Source of the DNA: a virus
Lineage: Duplodnaviria; Heunggongvirae; Uroviricota; Caudoviricetes
DNA length: 23,900 nucleotides
Reading direction: 5' to 3' (one strand)
IMG/VR virus record: IMGVR_UViG_2778261223_000025
Coordinates: 1 to 23,900 of that record
Part shown: positions 785 through 21,533 of the stretch, one piece after another
Numbering within the stretch: position 1 is the first letter of the stretch
Layout: each line of letters starts with the position of its first letter
Position numbers and translations under genes: made by a program
The notes under the pieces: generated by a model
What the model saw: the letters and a program-made list of their open reading frames with translations, nothing else
What the model was told of the DNA's origin: nothing
Databases searched by the model: none

Positions 785-1248
785 GCAGAGTAACCGCGAT
801 TATCTCCGCTCTGGTTATTTGCATCATCGTCTGCCTGTCATGGGCTGTTAATCATTACCGTGATAACGCCATCGCCTACAAAGAACAGCGAGATAAAAAA
901 GTCAGTGAGCTGAAGCAGGCGACCGCCACCATTACTGACATGCAGCAGCGCCAGCGTTCTGCTGATGCGCTCGATGCTAAATACACGAAGGAGTTAGCTG
1001 ATGCGAAAGCTGAAAATGATGCTCTTCGGCGCAAGCTTGATAATGGTGGTCGGGTGTTCGTCAAAGGAAAATGCCCTGTGCCATCCTCAGCCGAAACCTC
1101 CGGCGCCTCCGGCATGGGCAATGATGCCACCGTCGAACTCTCTCCAGTTGCTGGACGAAACGTTCTCGGTGTCCGGGACGGAATTATCCGCGACCAAACA
1201 GCACTGAGAACGCTTCAGGAATACATCAGGACGCAATGCCTTCGATGA
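781..1248 (+). CDS. Rz: Rz i-spanin (inner-membrane spanin subunit)
   Basis: 155 aa with N-terminal transmembrane segment ([18 protein letters not shown]) and coiled-coil body; N-terminal half resembles lambda Rz, C-terminal part differs. Confidence 0.88.
1001..1207 (+). CDS. Rz1: Rz1 o-spanin lipoprotein, embedded in the +1 frame of Rz
   Basis: 68-aa ORF wholly inside Rz in another frame; lipobox (MVVG-C) then a proline-rich stretch ([11 protein letters not shown]), as in lambda Rz1. Confidence 0.8.
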
Positions 1249-1422
1249 TAGCGATAATTTTACTCATCATCCTTCACATCTGGCTCTGTAGACAGGGTGG
1301 TGATCACTTCTGGAGTGAATCCAGATTAAACATCTCATTGCTGATGCTTGAAGTTGAGCATCTGGCGCGCGGTAAGGGGCTGCGTTGAGATAAGAGCCAG
1401 TCATTACAAATACCAGGATTTA

Positions 1423-1446
1423 GCCTCGCATTCGCGGGGCTTTTTT
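1423..1446 (+). terminator. Candidate rho-independent terminator downstream of Rz
   Basis: 7-bp stem gcctcgc/gcggggc (one G-U pair) with a 4-nt loop, followed by TTTTTT. Confidence 0.4.
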
Positions 1447-3055: not shown

Positions 3056-3544
3056 ATGGCAGCACCAAAGGGCAACCGATTTTGGGAGGCCCGCAGTAGT
3101 CATGGGCGAAATCCTAAATTCGAATCGCCTGAGGCGCTGTGGGCTGCTTGTTGTGAATACTTCGAGTGGGTAGAAGCTAACCCGCTATGGGAGATGAAGG
3201 CGTTCTCGTATCAGGGTGAAGTGATACAAGAGCCTATCGCCAAGATGCGAGCGATGACCATTACCGGACTCACTCTGTTCATTGATGTGACGCTTGAAAC
3301 ATGGCGCACATATCGCCTGCGAGAAGATTTATCTGAAGTCGTTACGCGAGCAGAGCAGGTCATCTACGACCAGAAATTCTCTGGCGCAGCCGCTGACCTT
3401 CTCAACGCTAACATCATCGCCCGTGATTTGGGCCTCAAAGAGCAGTCGCAAGTTGAAGACGTGACACCTGATAAGGGAGATCGCGATAAGCGACGCTCTC
3501 GTATCAAGGAGCTATTCAACCGTGGAACTGGACGCGATTCTTGA
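3056..3544 (+). CDS. 3: Terminase small subunit, P22 gp3-type
   Basis: 162 aa, the size of P22 gp3, and matches my recollection of it closely; contains the pac-like sequence; 3' end overlaps the large terminase start. Confidence 0.93.
3323..3344 (+). other. pac: P22-type pac site (headful packaging initiation) inside gene 3
   Basis: Sequence GAAGATTTATCTGAAGTCGTTA inside the small terminase gene matches the P22 pac site as I remember it. Confidence 0.55.
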
Positions 3545-14866: not shown

Positions 14867-16980
14867 TGACCTATAGTCGCGAACAGTTGATGACGGCGTT
14901 AAGGAATGCTGATGCTGCCGGCGATACTGAGGGAGCACGTCGCATTGCTCAGATGCTGTCTTCTGGTGATCAATCCACTCAAAACCAATCGCAGCCAGAA
15001 GAACAATCTCTGGTAGGAAAAGCCACTGACTGGCTCACTGGTGGTCAAAGCGCAGGGCAAATTGCAGAACAGGCTGGCCGTGGTCTGGTAAACATACCAT
15101 TTGACGTATTGCAGGGTGGCGCAAGTCTGATTAATGCAATCAGCCAGGGGCTTGGTGGCCCCAAGGTTTTGGATGATGTCTATCGTCCAGTCGATCGACC
15201 GACAGACTCTTACGCACAAGCCGGTGAAACAATTGGTGGGTATCTCCTGCCAATTGGCACAGCGGCAAAAGCTGCTGGAGCGCCAGCAAAGCTCGCAGGA
15301 GACATCGGTTCCGCAGGAAACATGATTGCCGGTTCTCTTGCTGATGCTGCAAATCAGGAGGGTGATTTTGCACAAAATGCTGCCATTAACGGTGGTATCA
15401 ATATTGGTGCTCAAGGCGTTCTTTCAGGTGTCGGGCGCGTTATTGCGCCAAGGGTTTCACAGGCTCTTGGTGGTGCAGCACTGAATTCTGCTAATGATGT
15501 TTCCAGGATGGCAAAGTCAGGTGCTGGGCGTCAGTCAATTGCCAGTCAGGCCGCTAATGTGTCCGAAGATGTAGCAAAAGCGGCTGAGTCTGCTGGAATT
15601 GATATAAACGCATTAACACCAGGAATGCGATCTGGAAGTCGTGGAATTGCACAAGCCGAAGGCGCATTGGCATCAACACCAGGGATTGTTCAGGATGCCC
15701 ATCAGGCAGCATTTAACGAAATATCATCAAAGTTAAGTCGAAACCTTGATGAATTTGGGGCCGCATCTGGAACGGCATCAGAAAAAAGTGCGGCTATAAA
15801 ACAAAGGATTCTTCAAAATCTTGATCAGATGAAGGATGCTGAGCGCGCGGCATGGGATGACGTGCGGTCAACAATGCCAAATCAAAAAGCAAGAATGCTA
15901 AATGGTAATGCCGTTATTCAGGCAGAGCGATCTGCTGGCATACCGCTTACTCCTGAAATGAAACAGTTTGTTCAGGCAAACAATCAAGGTGGAGTAACAT
16001 TTGATGGCATGAAAGCATGGAGAGCGAAATTTGCTGATGCGGAGCAAAAATATAAGCGTAGCGGAGAGGCAAATGCGGCAAGGAGAGCAGGGGAAATACG
16101 TCGGGCAATTACTGATGATATGCGCACAATGGCGGAAAACGGCGGATTTTTTGATGACTGGCAAAAAGCTAATGATCTGTCTAAAGCGAGGCTATCCGCA
16201 CAAGAGAGTGCAGAGTCTGTTTTTGGGCGTGATTTGGCAACAGATGCACTGATTACGAATGGAGTAAAATCTCTTCAATCATCGTCAGCTAAAGGTCTTA
16301 ATGGTCCTGCTGGATTCCATTCTATGATCCGCGCGCTGCCAGAATCAGAGCGTGTTCCTGCTATATCATCAATGTTGCAGGATGCTATCTCGCATGGTGT
16401 ACGTGGTGGCAAATCTGATGCAGCAGGAATTAACCATATCGCAGAGATACTCACTCCACAAAATGTAAAAGCCATTAGCATATATTCCTCAGAACTCGGA
16501 AGAATTGCTGATGCATATGGCACTCTTGCAAGAGCAGCAGTGAAACCTCAGCAGTATATTGAAAGAACAGGGAGAACTGCCAATGTACTACGCGATCTGG
16601 ATGCCGGTTTATCCAACGTCACATCAACAGTGTTAAATGCAATTGCCAACTCAACATCAGGTGCCATTGTTGGTGGAGCAGGAGGGGGCATTGCAGGCGC
16701 TGCCGCAGGTGCTTTAGTTGGCGCCGGGTTAAAAGGTGCTGTATCTAAAATTGCCACCACGCGTAGCGGTCGATATGCGATAGAGAAAGCAGTTCAGGAA
16801 GCCACGAAAGCAGTAAGAGCTGGCGGAAGTAAAGAAGCATTAGCGGCGGCTGAACGCAGATTTATGGCAAATAAAGCCGCCGTAAAAGCAATACGCGATG
16901 CTATTGGTAGCGATGAATTCAATCGCTTGTCGAGAGCTGGTATTGTCGCCTCGTTAAGCGGTATGAATGAATATGAATAG
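14866..16980 (+). CDS. 16: Ejection protein, gp16-type (extended, 704 aa)
   Basis: Last gene of the morphogenetic block by synteny; start overlaps the gp20 stop (TAATG); Gly/Ala-rich hydrophobic segment near the C-terminus. Confidence 0.7.
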
Positions 16981-17493: not shown

Positions 17494-17808
17494 TTATTTA
17501 TCAGAAGTTAGATTGTAATAATTGGTATAAGCTGAAATTGACTTCTGGCATGCTTCAAGAAATTCCTGTGGATTCATTCCTAGTCTTGCTTGCTCTGTGG
17601 TCAGAAAACGCTGTAAGAACTCATCTCCGCCAGGCATTTTTGTTGATTCTTGAAATGTTGCCATTTGTTTGATTGTGCCGCACATGCCAGCAAATTTCGA
17701 AGTTATCATGAGTTCTTGCAGGCCTTTAAGATCGCCATTATCTGATTTTGGTTTGGCGAAAACTATTGTAGAGAAGAACAATATTAACAAAATAGCGATA
17801 CGTTTCAT
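17494..17808 (-). CDS. Hypothetical small secreted protein with Sec signal peptide
   Basis: 104 aa; N-terminus MKRIAILLILFFSTIVFA followed by KPK; start ATG overlaps the mnt stop (ATGA), implying translational coupling; AT-rich; no family recognised. Confidence 0.6.
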   Translation of the reverse strand: MKRIAILLILFFSTIVFAKPKSDNGDLKGLQELMITSKFAGMCGTIKQMATFQESTKMPGGDEFLQRFLTTEQARLGMNPQEFLEACQKSISAYTNYYNLTSDK

Positions 17809-18056
17809 TTTTCACTGTTGCCATGCATACATTTTAACTTCTCAACCTCATGCTCAAGCTCTATCAACCGCGATGCTATAGTTGCAAGATCTAGTGCTTG
17901 AATATGTTTATTTTTTTCAGTCCATGCCTCAAGTGCTGCTACCATCTCAGCATTTAATGAACGAGAATTAGCCTCAGCCAGTTCAATAAGACGTTCCTTT
18001 ATCTCTACAGGAAGCCTCAGATTCACTTGAGGGTTTTTGTACTTACGATCAGACAT
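17805..18056 (-). CDS. mnt: Mnt-like ribbon-helix-helix repressor (immI region)
   Basis: 83 aa from the ATG at 18056 (track ORF starts at an upstream GTG); N-terminal RHH-like motif and C-terminal coiled coil; divergent from arc-ant as in P22; same length as P22 Mnt. Confidence 0.72.
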   Translation of the reverse strand: MSDRKYKNPQVNLRLPVEIKERLIELAEANSRSLNAEMVAALEAWTEKNKHIQALDLATIASRLIELEHEVEKLKCMHGNSEK

Positions 18057-18084
18057 CGGCACATCCTGAATAATTTTTTACCAC

Positions 18085-18113
18085 AGGATATGTAGGTATC
18101 TATTGACTATCAA
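18085..18113 (-). promoter_or_regulatory. Candidate Pmnt promoter
   Basis: Minus-strand TTGATA, 17-nt spacer, TATCCT, about 30 nt upstream of the mnt ATG; overlaps the divergent Pant -35. Confidence 0.3.
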
Positions 18114-18131
18114 TGCGTACCTAAATACTAT
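18103..18131 (+). promoter_or_regulatory. Candidate Pant promoter driving arc-ant
   Basis: TTGACT, 17-nt spacer, TACTAT on the plus strand about 30 nt upstream of arc; a 6-bp inverted repeat tgtatg/cataca (18131-18149) and a direct repeat atgcgtacc (18113-18121, 18134-18142) are operator candidates. Confidence 0.4.
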
Positions 18132-18160
18132 GTATGCGTACCACATACAAAGGAGCAAAA

Positions 18161-18307
18161 ATGAAAGTTAAGACATTAAGGATGCCAGAATGGCTGGAAA
18201 AGGCTTTGGAGCAGTCCGCGAAAAAGGATGATCGGTCGTTCAGTAATGAGGTATTGAGGAGACTAAAGGAGTCAGTAGCTAAGGATGGAATTGTTTGTCC
18301 AGAATGA
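18161..18307 (+). CDS. arc: Arc-like ribbon-helix-helix repressor (48 aa; below the ORF track's length cutoff)
   Basis: ATG at 18161 with AGGAG 6 nt upstream; MKVKTLRMPEWLEKALEQSAKKDDRSFSNEVLRRLKESVAKDGIVCPE; size and position match P22 arc, upstream of ant. Confidence 0.68.
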   Translation: MKVKTLRMPEWLEKALEQSAKKDDRSFSNEVLRRLKESVAKDGIVCPE

Positions 18308-18310
18308 GTA

Positions 18311-18341
18311 AAGCCCAAGCTATTGCGAGTAGCTCGGGCTT
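18311..18341. promoter_or_regulatory. Hairpin in the arc-ant intercistronic region (possible sar-like antisense RNA element)
   Basis: 10-bp arms aagcccaagc/gctcgggctt (9 of 10 paired), 11-nt loop, 30 nt upstream of the ant start; no clear U-tract on either strand. Confidence 0.3.
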
Positions 18342-18373
18342 AAATCGCCAGTAAATTTTGAGGAAAAACTGAC

Positions 18374-19303
18374 ATGAAAAGTATAGCAACAGCAGTATCT
18401 ACTATCAACGTGCCATTCCACGGCGCAGAGCTTTATGTCGTCAATCACAACGGTGAGCCGTACACCCCAATGAAACCTATCGTTGAAGGTATGGGTATGG
18501 ATTGGGCTTCACAGTTTACGAAAATAAAGCAACGGTTTAAAACCTCCATTGTGAAAATCACAATGCAGCTTCCTGGTGATGAACAGTGCCGTGAGATTAT
18601 TTGTTTGGCACTTCGCAAACTTGCTGGCTGGCTGCAAACCATCAGTCCAAACAAAGTCCGCCCTGAAATCCGCGACAAGGTAATCCAGTATCAGGAAGAG
18701 TGTGACGATGTGCTCTACGAGTACTGGACTAAAGGCCATGTAGTTAACCCACGCAAAGCTAAAAAGGCGTTGCCGGGTAAAATCACCACTGAACAGCAGG
18801 AAGCCATTAAACAACTCGTCATGAGTCGCGGTCAGTCTCTGCCAAAAGAAAAACAGGCGAAGGCAATGATTACCATGTGGTCGTCGCTGAAATCTCATTT
18901 TGGGTGTTCATACAAAGAAATCAGCGATGAGCAGTTTACCGAAGCTCTGTCACTTGCAGCTCGCGTTCCGCTTGAAGGCGAGTTAATCGGCAAACAAGAG
19001 AAGAAAGCAAACGAGCTTTCTGCAAAAGAAGCAAACAGCCTTGTATGGTTATGGGATTATGCCAACCGCTCACAGGCATTATTCCGCGAACTGTATCCGG
19101 CGCTAAAACAAATTCAATCGAACTATTCAGGCAGATGTCATGACTGTGGTTATGAGTTCTCCCGTATTATCGATATGGCGAGAGACGTTTTAATCAATCA
19201 CTCACGAGATGTTGATATCAATGAGCCAGACGGACCAACGAATCTTTCCGCATGGATGAGACTTAAGAATAAAAAATTACCTCCTTCAGTACATAACTAC
19301 TGA
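18374..19303 (+). CDS. ant: Antirepressor Ant
   Basis: 309 aa (P22 Ant about 300); N-terminus has the typical antirepressor look; follows arc and precedes the tailspike as in P22 immI. Confidence 0.8.
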   Translation: MKSIATAVSTINVPFHGAELYVVNHNGEPYTPMKPIVEGMGMDWASQFTKIKQRFKTSIVKITMQLPGDEQCREIICLALRKLAGWLQTISPNKVRPEIRDKVIQYQEECDDVLYEYWTKGHVVNPRKAKKALPGKITTEQQEAIKQLVMSRGQSLPKEKQAKAMITMWSSLKSHFGCSYKEISDEQFTEALSLAARVPLEGELIGKQEKKANELSAKEANSLVWLWDYANRSQALFRELYPALKQIQSNYSGRCHDCGYEFSRIIDMARDVLINHSRDVDINEPDGPTNLSAWMRLKNKKLPPSVHNY

Positions 19304-19321
19304 CAGATAACCAACGCAACG

Positions 19322-19346
19322 ACCCAGCTTCGGCTGGGTTTTTTTA
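19322..19346 (+). terminator. Rho-independent terminator between ant and the tailspike gene
   Basis: Perfect stem acccagc/gctgggt with a cUUCGg tetraloop, then TTTTTTT. Confidence 0.8.
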
Positions 19347-19403
19347 TACCCAAAATTCACCGTAGCCACGCTGCGGCGATTCCTTGCATCTGGAGCAAAT
19401 TAA

Positions 19404-21533
19404 ATGACAGACATTACAGCCAATGTGATTGTATCTATGCCTTCGCAACTCTTCACTATGGCGCGTTCTTTTAAAGCGGTTGCCAATGGCAAAATTTATA
19501 TCGGTAAAATTGACACTGACCCGGTAAATCCTGAAAACCAGATTCAGGTTTATGTGGAGAACGAAGACGGTTCTCACGTTCCTGTTTCGCAACCAATCAT
19601 CATTAACGCTGCTGGATATCCGGTATATAACGGACAGATTGCCAAGTTCGTAACTGAGCAAGGCCATTCCATGGCTGTATATGATGCGTATGGTGCGAAG
19701 CAGTTCTATTTTCCTAATGTGCTGAAGTATGACCCTGACCAATTTCAGTTCACGCTCTCGTCAGACACTGGCGCAAATCTTGTCGGCATCAAGAGAACTG
19801 GACTGCCAAATAATAACTCTACTACTGTTGGTGCTTACTATCAGACAACACCTATCAACGCGGTAACAGATTACGGAATGAAAGGGGATTTCGACCCGTC
19901 AACTGGATTTGTTAACGGAACGAATAACCGTTCTGCACTTCAACAATTGATGGATGATCTGGTAAATATCGGTGGAAACAAAACTGTAACCATTCCTCCG
20001 GGTAACTATTACTTCAACTTTGACGGTAGCACTAATCCTGGTGGTGTTGGGGTTATGTGGGGAAGGGTCGGTGCAGGGTTAAAGAATGTCACATTCCTGT
20101 GCTATGGCGCCACATTTTACTCTGGGAGCATTGGCAGACTTAACGGCATATTCAGCGCTAATTATGGTGTAAGGATAAAAGGCTTGAGAGTGATAGGGTT
20201 CGGCGGCGGAACGCTCGCTCCTTCACGAGAAAGGGATGCTATCTTTGCTCTTGCCTACAACTGCTGTGGGGTAACATTTGATGAGTGTTACTTTGCTAAC
20301 AGCATGGGGGACTGCGTTTATCTTGGTGGCAGTCTTGATGACGGCTCTATAACTGGATTATTTTGCAGGGATATCGCTTTTAATGGCTGTACTTTAAAAG
20401 AAAGATACGGGGATGGTATTAGATCTTACTACAGCGGATCTAGGTCAAGGATGGCTATTGCTGTTATCGACTGCGTTGGTCTCAGGATTGATAACTGCAA
20501 AATAGTAGGCGGAATAGACTTCGAACCAAACGCAACAAACCAGCGCCTGCAGAATATGATGGTAGGTAATACCAGGTTCCATGCAGGAAATGTCCTTGCA
20601 TACACTGGAACAAACCCATTTTACGAGGAGCAAATCAATAGCGGAACTCAGGTTATACGTGGAGACATCCGATTCCAGACGCGAGCGGGTGGGGTCATCA
20701 CTCAGAATATTCATATATCTAACGTATCATTCGACTACGGATGCATCAGGCAGACATCTCTTGGTATAGCTGACGTTATTTATGAAAACATAAGAATGCG
20801 CAGGGGTATATTGGTGGTTGGTTCTGACTCAGGCACAAACTTCAACCCATCTGCAAACTTCAATGATGTTTATGTTGATCTGGCTCTTAACGGTTCAGAT
20901 GATGATATCTTTGAGTTGAATGGGTCAGGCACAACACCTCCTACATTGCCAGCAGTAGTCATGTTGATACAGGGAAATCTTACATACGCAAGATTTAATG
21001 GGATAAGTGGAGGGAATACCATCGGTGCATTTAGTTACCTGTTTTATGCAGATCCAACACACACAGCTGGTGATGCGGGGAGGAGCATTTACGCAAACTG
21101 CAGCATACTTGGCGGTAACCTTTACAACTACACTATCCCGGATAGCAGTCAGGAACTTGGAAACACATCTATGCCAGCCTCCGGAGTTGCCTTTACAAAA
21201 TACCGTAGGATTAATACTGACCTAATCATGCAGTCGGTTGGTGCTCTAAGCATATCCGCAAGCGGTTCAATAGACTGGAACGCATTCAGAACAAGCAAAT
21301 TGGCAGTAACTGCTACCACTACAGGCCTGCAAATATCAGGGATTGTTAATGGCCCTATGGTTGGTGCTGAGGTTCAGATAAGGAATAGTGGATCAAACCC
21401 CATAATTCTGGCTCACAGTACATCTTTCTATCTTAAAGGAACAACTAGTGCCACCCTTGACGATACGAGAAAGGTGGTGACGTTCCAGTACATCTCTTCA
21501 GGAGTATGGACGGAGATATACCGGAACTTTTAA
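19404..21533 (+). CDS. 9: Tailspike protein with P22-type N-terminal head-binding domain and a divergent receptor-binding domain
   Basis: 709 aa; the first roughly 110 residues match the conserved P22/HK620 tailspike N-terminus from memory; the rest is G/N/S/T-rich, consistent with a beta-helix, and differs from the P22 and HK620 domains I can recall. Confidence 0.9.

Follow-up and report, generated by a model that had tools for sequence, protein, structure and literature searches.

The minus strand of the spacer between arc and ant very probably encodes a diverged orthologue of the sar RNA of phage P22. The spacer is part of the 23.9-kb stretch of viral DNA analyzed here (the window), in which the predicted RNA of ∼67–68 nt occupies 18306–18373 on the minus strand; it is supported by the Rfam family RF00262, a covariance model termed R2, and its fold. 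Judged by its sequence, it is an ordinary, diverged member of the known sar family and not a new kind of element: it lies in the antisense slot, its 5′ end adjoins the start of ant, it can form two stem-loops, it is complementary to the ribosome-binding site, and it matches a covariance model significantly. The initial annotation of this DNA had proposed a sar-like antisense element between arc and ant, a proposal that the sequence supports.

Results

The window is recognizable as a P22-like prophage of Escherichia coli that carries an immI region. Over long stretches, its morphogenetic genes share ∼95% identity with those of E. coli phages of the P22-like group (Lederbergvirus). The 401-nt region that contains the spacer is matched without any difference by a prophage of E. 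coli PSJ-36 (100% identity), and at least 80% of it was found in 35 of 5,426 complete E. coli genomes. The gene order, that is, mnt (on the minus strand), arc, a 66-nt spacer, ant, a canonical terminator, and the tailspike gene, matches that of the P22 immI region, where sar is annotated between arc and ant (15021–15090 in BK000583). The mnt homologue (17805–18062, minus strand; Pfam Arc-like domain, E = 3e-10) has the position and orientation of P22 mnt and completes the immI layout. The arc homologue (18161–18307, plus strand; 48 aa) matches Pfam Arc (PF03869) with 25.1 bits against a cutoff of 20.4; AAGGAG is found upstream of its ATG at 18161, and its stop codon (TGA, 18305–18307) overlaps the predicted 3′ end of sar. 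The antirepressor gene ant (18374–19303, plus strand; 309 aa) encodes the Pfam domains P22_AR_N (E = 7e-45) and P22_AR_C (E = 1.2e-26). Between the end of arc at 18307 and the start of ant at 18374, the spacer (18308–18373) measures 66 nt, exactly the length that had been assigned to it. The translation start of ant (18360–18376, plus strand), read from the sequence as the Shine–Dalgarno motif GAGGA (18360–18364) and ATG (18374–18376), would be the target of sar. The arc-ant target mRNA likely originates from a Pant-like promoter (TTGACT-17-TACTAT; 18103–18131, plus strand), which was recognized by consensus scan only and is located within a palindrome (18089–18127).

The mnt-arc control region (18085–18131) is unlike that of P22 and the same as that of phage SEN22. 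The two 18-nt arms of the palindrome (18089–18106 and 18110–18127) span the −35 element of the Pant-like promoter, and a divergent Pmnt-like site extends from 18113 to 18085; the sequence of this region points to Arc/Mnt operators with a different specificity. On the far side of mnt, a 104-aa ORF (17494–17808, minus strand) overlaps the end of that gene by 4 nt; it has a signal peptide-like N-terminus (MKRIAILLILFFSTIVFAKP) and no match in Pfam, occupies the slot of P22 orf59a/sieA, and may be a moron or exclusion gene. The canonical GC-rich terminator with its T run is situated 3′ of ant (19321–19340, plus strand), and its minus strand (19318–19356) gave a weak, insignificant match to the Rfam family STnc370 (E = 3.2).

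A hairpin had been noted in the spacer just upstream of the ant ribosome-binding site, with a stem of 10 bp. The hairpin is real, and its distance to GAGGA is 19 nt; its stem, however, comprises 12 positions and not 10 (arms 18311–18322 and 18330–18341, separated by a 7-nt loop). On the plus strand, these arms form 11 Watson–Crick pairs and one A·C mismatch (18317/18335), whereas on the minus strand the same two positions form a G·U pair, so that 12 of 12 positions are paired. Neither the minus strand (tail UUUACUCAUUCU) nor the plus strand (tail UUAAAUCGCC) has a clean U-tract, which agrees with the initial annotation. The minus-strand hairpin (38-mer) folds with −18.7 kcal/mol (z = −5.65), and 0 of 200 shuffled sequences were as good. 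Over 81 nt, the minus strand reached a z-score of −5.43, compared with −2.52 for the plus strand, and the structure of the plus-strand leader (18340–18400) is not unusual (z = +0.98).

From the geometry of the P22 promoter, the RNA is predicted to start at G18373, the base next to the complement of the ant ATG, and by analogy its 3′ end would lie at ∼18306–18307. The minimum free energy fold of this 68-mer (−24.8 kcal/mol, z = −5.08; P22 sar, −29.5 kcal/mol, z = −4.75) has the two-hairpin shape of P22 sar. Stem-loop I (18347–18373, minus strand) consists of a 6-bp stem (18373–18368 with 18352–18347) and a 15-nt loop (UUUUCCUCAAAAUUU), which carries the anti-Shine–Dalgarno motif CCUC. Stem-loop II (18311–18341, minus strand), the predicted terminator hairpin, is the hairpin that had been noted before; it contains 12 bp including one G·U, the loop CUCGCAA, and the tail UUUACUCAUUCU. 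Because this U-tract is poor, the efficiency and the exact point of termination are uncertain. P22 sar likewise has no clean U-tract (it ends …GGGGCUUCAACUU); the doubt raised in the initial annotation applies to it just as much, and a weak U tail is a trait of the sar family. In the sequence type represented by the window (window type), the U tail is also constrained by the overlapping stop codon of arc. Two minus-strand ORFs extending over the spacer (18279–18389 and 18320–18448) were not accepted as genes: both begin ahead of the point at which the transcript is predicted to start, neither AUG nor GUG occurs within sar, and the indels among its homologues are not multiples of three.

One check suggested in the initial annotation was for a promoter on the minus strand within the first 60 bp of ant, and a σ70-like scan found such a site at 18408 to 18380 (minus strand), within codons 3–12. 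It consists of a −35 element TTGATA (18408–18403), a 17-nt spacer, an extended −10 TG (18388–18387), and a −10 element TATACT (18385–18380). The −10 element ends 6 nt inside ant, which is the offset of the annotated P22 Psar (in BK000583, Psar is at 15097–15125, the ant ATG at 15091, and the 5′ end of sar at 15090). With 10 of 12 consensus positions matched, it is the best of four σ70-like sites within 17700–19500 (1.8 kb), but the match alone is not significant, as 3.6 ± 2.3 such sites are expected in shuffled sequence. The evidence for the promoter is, therefore, its position and its conservation, since hexamer matches are no commoner than in shuffles. Conservation was assessed at 80 loci that had been picked by homology to the N-terminal domain of the Ant protein alone and were, thus, free of promoter-based selection. 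The ATG was found at the expected position in 70 of them, corresponding to 35 distinct ant-start sequences, and TGcTAnACT together with TTGAT[A/T] is kept in all 35. Codon 2 of ant varies across these loci (Lys, Thr, Ser, or Asn), and the Ile codon inside the −10 element is either the rare ATA or is replaced by Val or Leu with the key −10 positions intact. Part of the conservation of the −35 element may reflect the conserved Ant peptide T-I-N-V. Taken by its sequence pattern, the site is a conserved, putative antisense promoter in the first codons of ant.

RF00262 aligned end to end (model positions 1–68) with 18373–18307 (minus strand; 29.3 bits, E = 0.0028). This score is below the Rfam gathering cutoff of 43 bits, which is a curated annotation threshold and not a biological property. 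Elsewhere, the family model scored 97.8 bits for P22, 84.6 bits for CUS-3, and 32.4 bits for SEN22, which carries a variant of the window type. An alignment with P22 sar, which had been proposed as a check, confirmed the correspondence: RF00262 is matched over its full length, identity is ∼68%, the architecture is the same, and the changes in the terminator stem are compensatory. For model R2, 30 sar sequences of types other than the window type were used, and its parameters derive solely from these; its source alignment (A4) comprised the non-window-type loci realigned with R1, a model that had seen the window type. A MAFFT alignment prepared without the window type (A3) was discarded for modelling, as it placed stem-loop I in three registers. 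In a search of the entire 23.9-kb window with filters off, R2 gave a single significant match, which covers the full length of the model at 18373–18298 (minus strand; 39.4 bits, E = 2.6e-6); next in rank were the same palindrome read on the plus strand (17.8 bits) and noise of at most 12.6 bits. Weak Rfam matches to STnc370, Plastid-psbJ-4, and snoU61 (E between 3 and 9) were dismissed as chance or terminator-like.

Searching IMG/VR with the conserved −10/ATG motif yielded 119 loci, which, after removal of 7 unrelated ones, provided 64 distinct 76-nt sequences. Twenty-four representative sar variants were aligned with MAFFT, and RNAalifold, run independently, returned exactly the two expected helices as the consensus. 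Standard pairs were found in 97.6% of the pair cells, compared with 33–45% when the partners were slid by one to three columns, and 8 of the 19 pairs had changed on both sides; the observed values were reached by 0 of 500 shuffles. Helix 1 is paired in 97.9% of its cells, with both-side changes in 2 of 6 pairs, and helix 2 in 97.4%, with such changes in 6 of 13. The two strands differ in this respect: the helices contain 84 G·U cells when read as minus strand and 1 when read as plus strand, and pairing amounts to 97.6% versus 79.4%. It is this asymmetry which indicates that the minus-strand RNA is the selected molecule.

The same data bear on the notion that the hairpin acts on the plus strand, within the arc-ant mRNA, by way of intercistronic processing, stability, or attenuation, and that no functional antisense RNA exists. 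The plus strand folds too (z = −2.52 over 81 nt), and in 1997 Schaefer and McClure reportedly described a mirror-image structure in the P22 target mRNA (cited in PMC2629481). However, the plus-strand stem contains the A·C mismatch and is followed by a tail without a U-tract (UUAAAUCGCC), its pairing across the 24 variants drops to the lower value because the 84 G·U cells become A·C, and one variant (L129) would carry two adjacent mismatches. As, in addition, the leader is not unusually structured and a conserved antisense promoter is present at the right distance, action of the hairpin solely as an mRNA element is very unlikely. Even less credible is a palindrome operating at the DNA level, as a protein-binding site or as a recombination boundary between mosaic modules, with merely incidental RNA-like properties. 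Such a role would fit the invariant base of the stem (GCCC/GGGC), the reassortment of the flanking modules among phages, and the annotation of the region in CUS-3 as “boundary sequence.” It would demand Watson–Crick symmetry, yet 84 cells are G·U, and the free covariation in the upper stem is what paired RNA would show, rather than a site recognized by a sequence-specific protein.

At 78 of the 80 loci selected by Ant homology, a minus-strand match to sar ends directly next to the ant ATG, at the base preceding it. The remaining two Ant homologues (L184 and L186, both from IMG/VR) have a different 5′ context, and the upstream sar-like element is absent. A mere coincidence of a hairpin with a promoter-like site could invoke the fact that promoter-like hexamer pairs are equally frequent in the region and in shuffles, but it would also have to produce fold z-scores between −5.1 and −5.7, which none of 200 shuffles equalled, model E-values of 0.003 and 3e-6 precisely where synteny places sar, and an element conserved in 78 of 80 Ant-linked loci. 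The R2 match and the 78 Ant-selected loci effectively refute this reading, to which we assign the least probability of all.

An antisense RNA of the sar family could also persist as a decayed, non-functional remnant. The diverged sequence with its 29.3 bits against the 43-bit cutoff, a U·U at the position of the P22 helix base pair 36–69, and the poor U-tract would be in line with decay. The window type recurs, however, in many independent contigs: it was found in 5 of the pattern-selected loci, in 14 of the 80 Ant-selected loci, in SEN22, and, over at least 80% of the region, in the 35 E. coli genomes mentioned above. Where its copies differ, pairing is preserved (L105, G·U to U·G and C-G to A-U; SEN22, U·G; L129, A-U to G·U). 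Moreover, arc and ant are both intact, and the −35 element (TTGATA, 5 of 6 consensus positions) is nearer to the consensus than that of P22 (GTGTTA, 3 of 6; our own reading of the P22 −35), which makes decay improbable, if less so than the other readings. Thus, the alternatives to a sar-family antisense RNA are disfavored by the statistics of the models, by the integrity of arc and ant, by the G·U asymmetry, and by substitutions within the window type that retain pairing.

Discussion

In P22, the sar transcript is made and represses the translation of Ant (PMC7968456, PMC13397905, PMC12111858). Antisense control in the P22 immI region, which provides the basis for the mechanism proposed here, is also covered in PMC2629481, and the length of P22 sar is given as 69 nt (PMC3134472). 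By analogy, we infer that a sar RNA is made in this prophage as well, pairs with the arc-ant mRNA, and represses Ant. The σ70 promoter within the first codons of ant (18408 to 18380) would read backwards; transcription would proceed from ∼G18373 across the ant leader and stop at the 12-bp GC-based hairpin at ∼18306–18307, resulting in an RNA of ∼67 nt. Its first hairpin would present the anti-Shine–Dalgarno sequence in the 15-nt loop, and the complementarity of the predicted RNA to the ant leader is complete and takes in the Shine–Dalgarno motif GAGGA. The RNA would pair with arc-ant mRNA originating from Pant or from late-operon read-through, and this pairing would occlude the ribosome-binding site of ant and lower antirepressor synthesis while leaving arc untouched. 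The prophage, therefore, probably keeps a P22-style third layer of control over its antirepressor, which bears on predicting induction and superinfection. The known mechanism of sar is unchanged by the element in the window.

The practical point is one of annotation. Routine annotation would miss the window copy because its score is below the 43-bit cutoff, and the variant recurs in many prophage contigs of IMG/VR. A broader covariance model (R1 or R2) recovers sar beside 78 of 80 ant genes, including that of one Stx-type lambdoid phage. No ncRNA or sar feature is present in the two RefSeq records inspected, the 100% identical locus of E. coli PSJ-36 and that of E. coli APEC O18, which is of the CUS-3 type; as both lack the annotation, the comparison is uninformative as to a detection failure specific to the window variant.

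The Stx-type phage is YYZ-2008 (L205; NC_011356, 41274–44603), where an immI cassette (838–2433 of the locus) is situated between tail genes and only ant is annotated. The cassette consists of an mnt-like ORF (838–1182, minus strand), an arc-like ORF (1266–1439, plus strand), a sar-like RNA (1509 to 1435; 51.4 bits with R1) with a clean U-tract, and ant (1510–2433). The mnt-arc-sar-ant cassette may also move as a unit into unrelated lambdoid phages, of which YYZ-2008 is an example. A sar is also present in Cronobacter phage ES2 (79.3 bits). In CUS-3, sar (3194–3261 of locus L002) lies inside the feature annotated only as “boundary sequence”; this phage was described as lacking arc (PMC2629481). 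The locus of E. coli APEC O18 (L124, 1603–2006) has a CUS-3-type sar that does not adjoin arc: in RefSeq, a small gene of the Arc family is placed 263 nt ahead of ant.

Within the family, sar is modular (L004–L204, IMG/VR): several types of stem-loop I, linked to the 5′ allele of ant, occur in combination with several terminator types, linked to the arc allele on the other side. At the joints of these modules are invariant stretches (TGCTAnACT…CAT and GCCC/GGGC), which may serve as recombination boundaries. One IMG/VR locus (L104) has a window-type sar in which the 3′ arm of the terminator is replaced by unrelated DNA (…CGCAATAGGTTGTTTGATGGG…) and the hairpin cannot form; this copy appears to have arisen by natural recombination or to have been inactivated. 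The window/SEN22, P22, CUS-3, and other types of sar are distinguished by loop I and by the upper part of the terminator stem. That they constitute discrete alleles, each perhaps repressing only its own ant leader, is a tentative idea that we consider rather doubtful. If true, antisense control in immI would be allele-specific, in the way that plasmid antisense RNAs define incompatibility groups, and could determine if the antirepressor of a related, superinfecting phage is silenced by the prophage already resident.

Several other antisense systems invite comparison. RNA-OUT of IS10 and OOP of phage lambda resemble sar in being short, structured RNAs made from the strand opposite to their target (PMC3134472), and RNA-OUT, like sar, covers a ribosome-binding site. 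Their sequences and genetic contexts are unrelated to those of the window sar, and the Rfam search of the window region produced no match to RNA-OUT or OOP. The target of lambda OOP is the 3′ end of cII, with which it pairs, and its action depends on cleavage by RNase III. The c4 RNA of the P1 and P7 immI regions is similar to sar in that it limits the synthesis of Ant by masking a ribosome-binding site. It (Rfam “C4”) is processed from the target operon's own strand, has short complementary boxes, and is not a cis-antisense transcript; within 17500–19500, no C4 match was obtained at E-values up to 10, which places the element outside that family.

P22 sar (RF00262; BK000583, 15021–15090) is 68–69 nt long, this length and the behavior of Psar being drawn from secondary citations and the BK000583 annotation. 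It corresponds to the predicted RNA in its location on the antisense strand of the arc-ant spacer, with a 5′ end abutting the ant start codon and a 3′ end overlapping the arc stop, in a promoter within the first ant codons with the extended −10 TGcTATACT, in a size of ∼67–68 nt, and in its two hairpins, the first with an anti-Shine–Dalgarno sequence in loop I and the second a GC-based terminator hairpin followed by an interrupted U tail. The window element differs by its ∼68% identity and sub-cutoff Rfam score, by an upper terminator stem and loop that are replaced with compensating pairs, by a U·U in place of the G-C closing pair of P22, and by a loop I without the small inner helix predicted for P22 sar. 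Its −35 element is closer to the consensus, its arc allele is different, and its mnt-arc operator region is unlike that of P22. Much closer to the window element are an IMG/VR variant and an unannotated sar-type element of SEN22 (NC_028696, 16128–16194), both ∼90% identical to it. SEN22, whose ant is interrupted by a transposon, shares the arc type and the mnt-arc control region with the window, and the few substitutions by which its element departs from the predicted RNA all preserve pairing.
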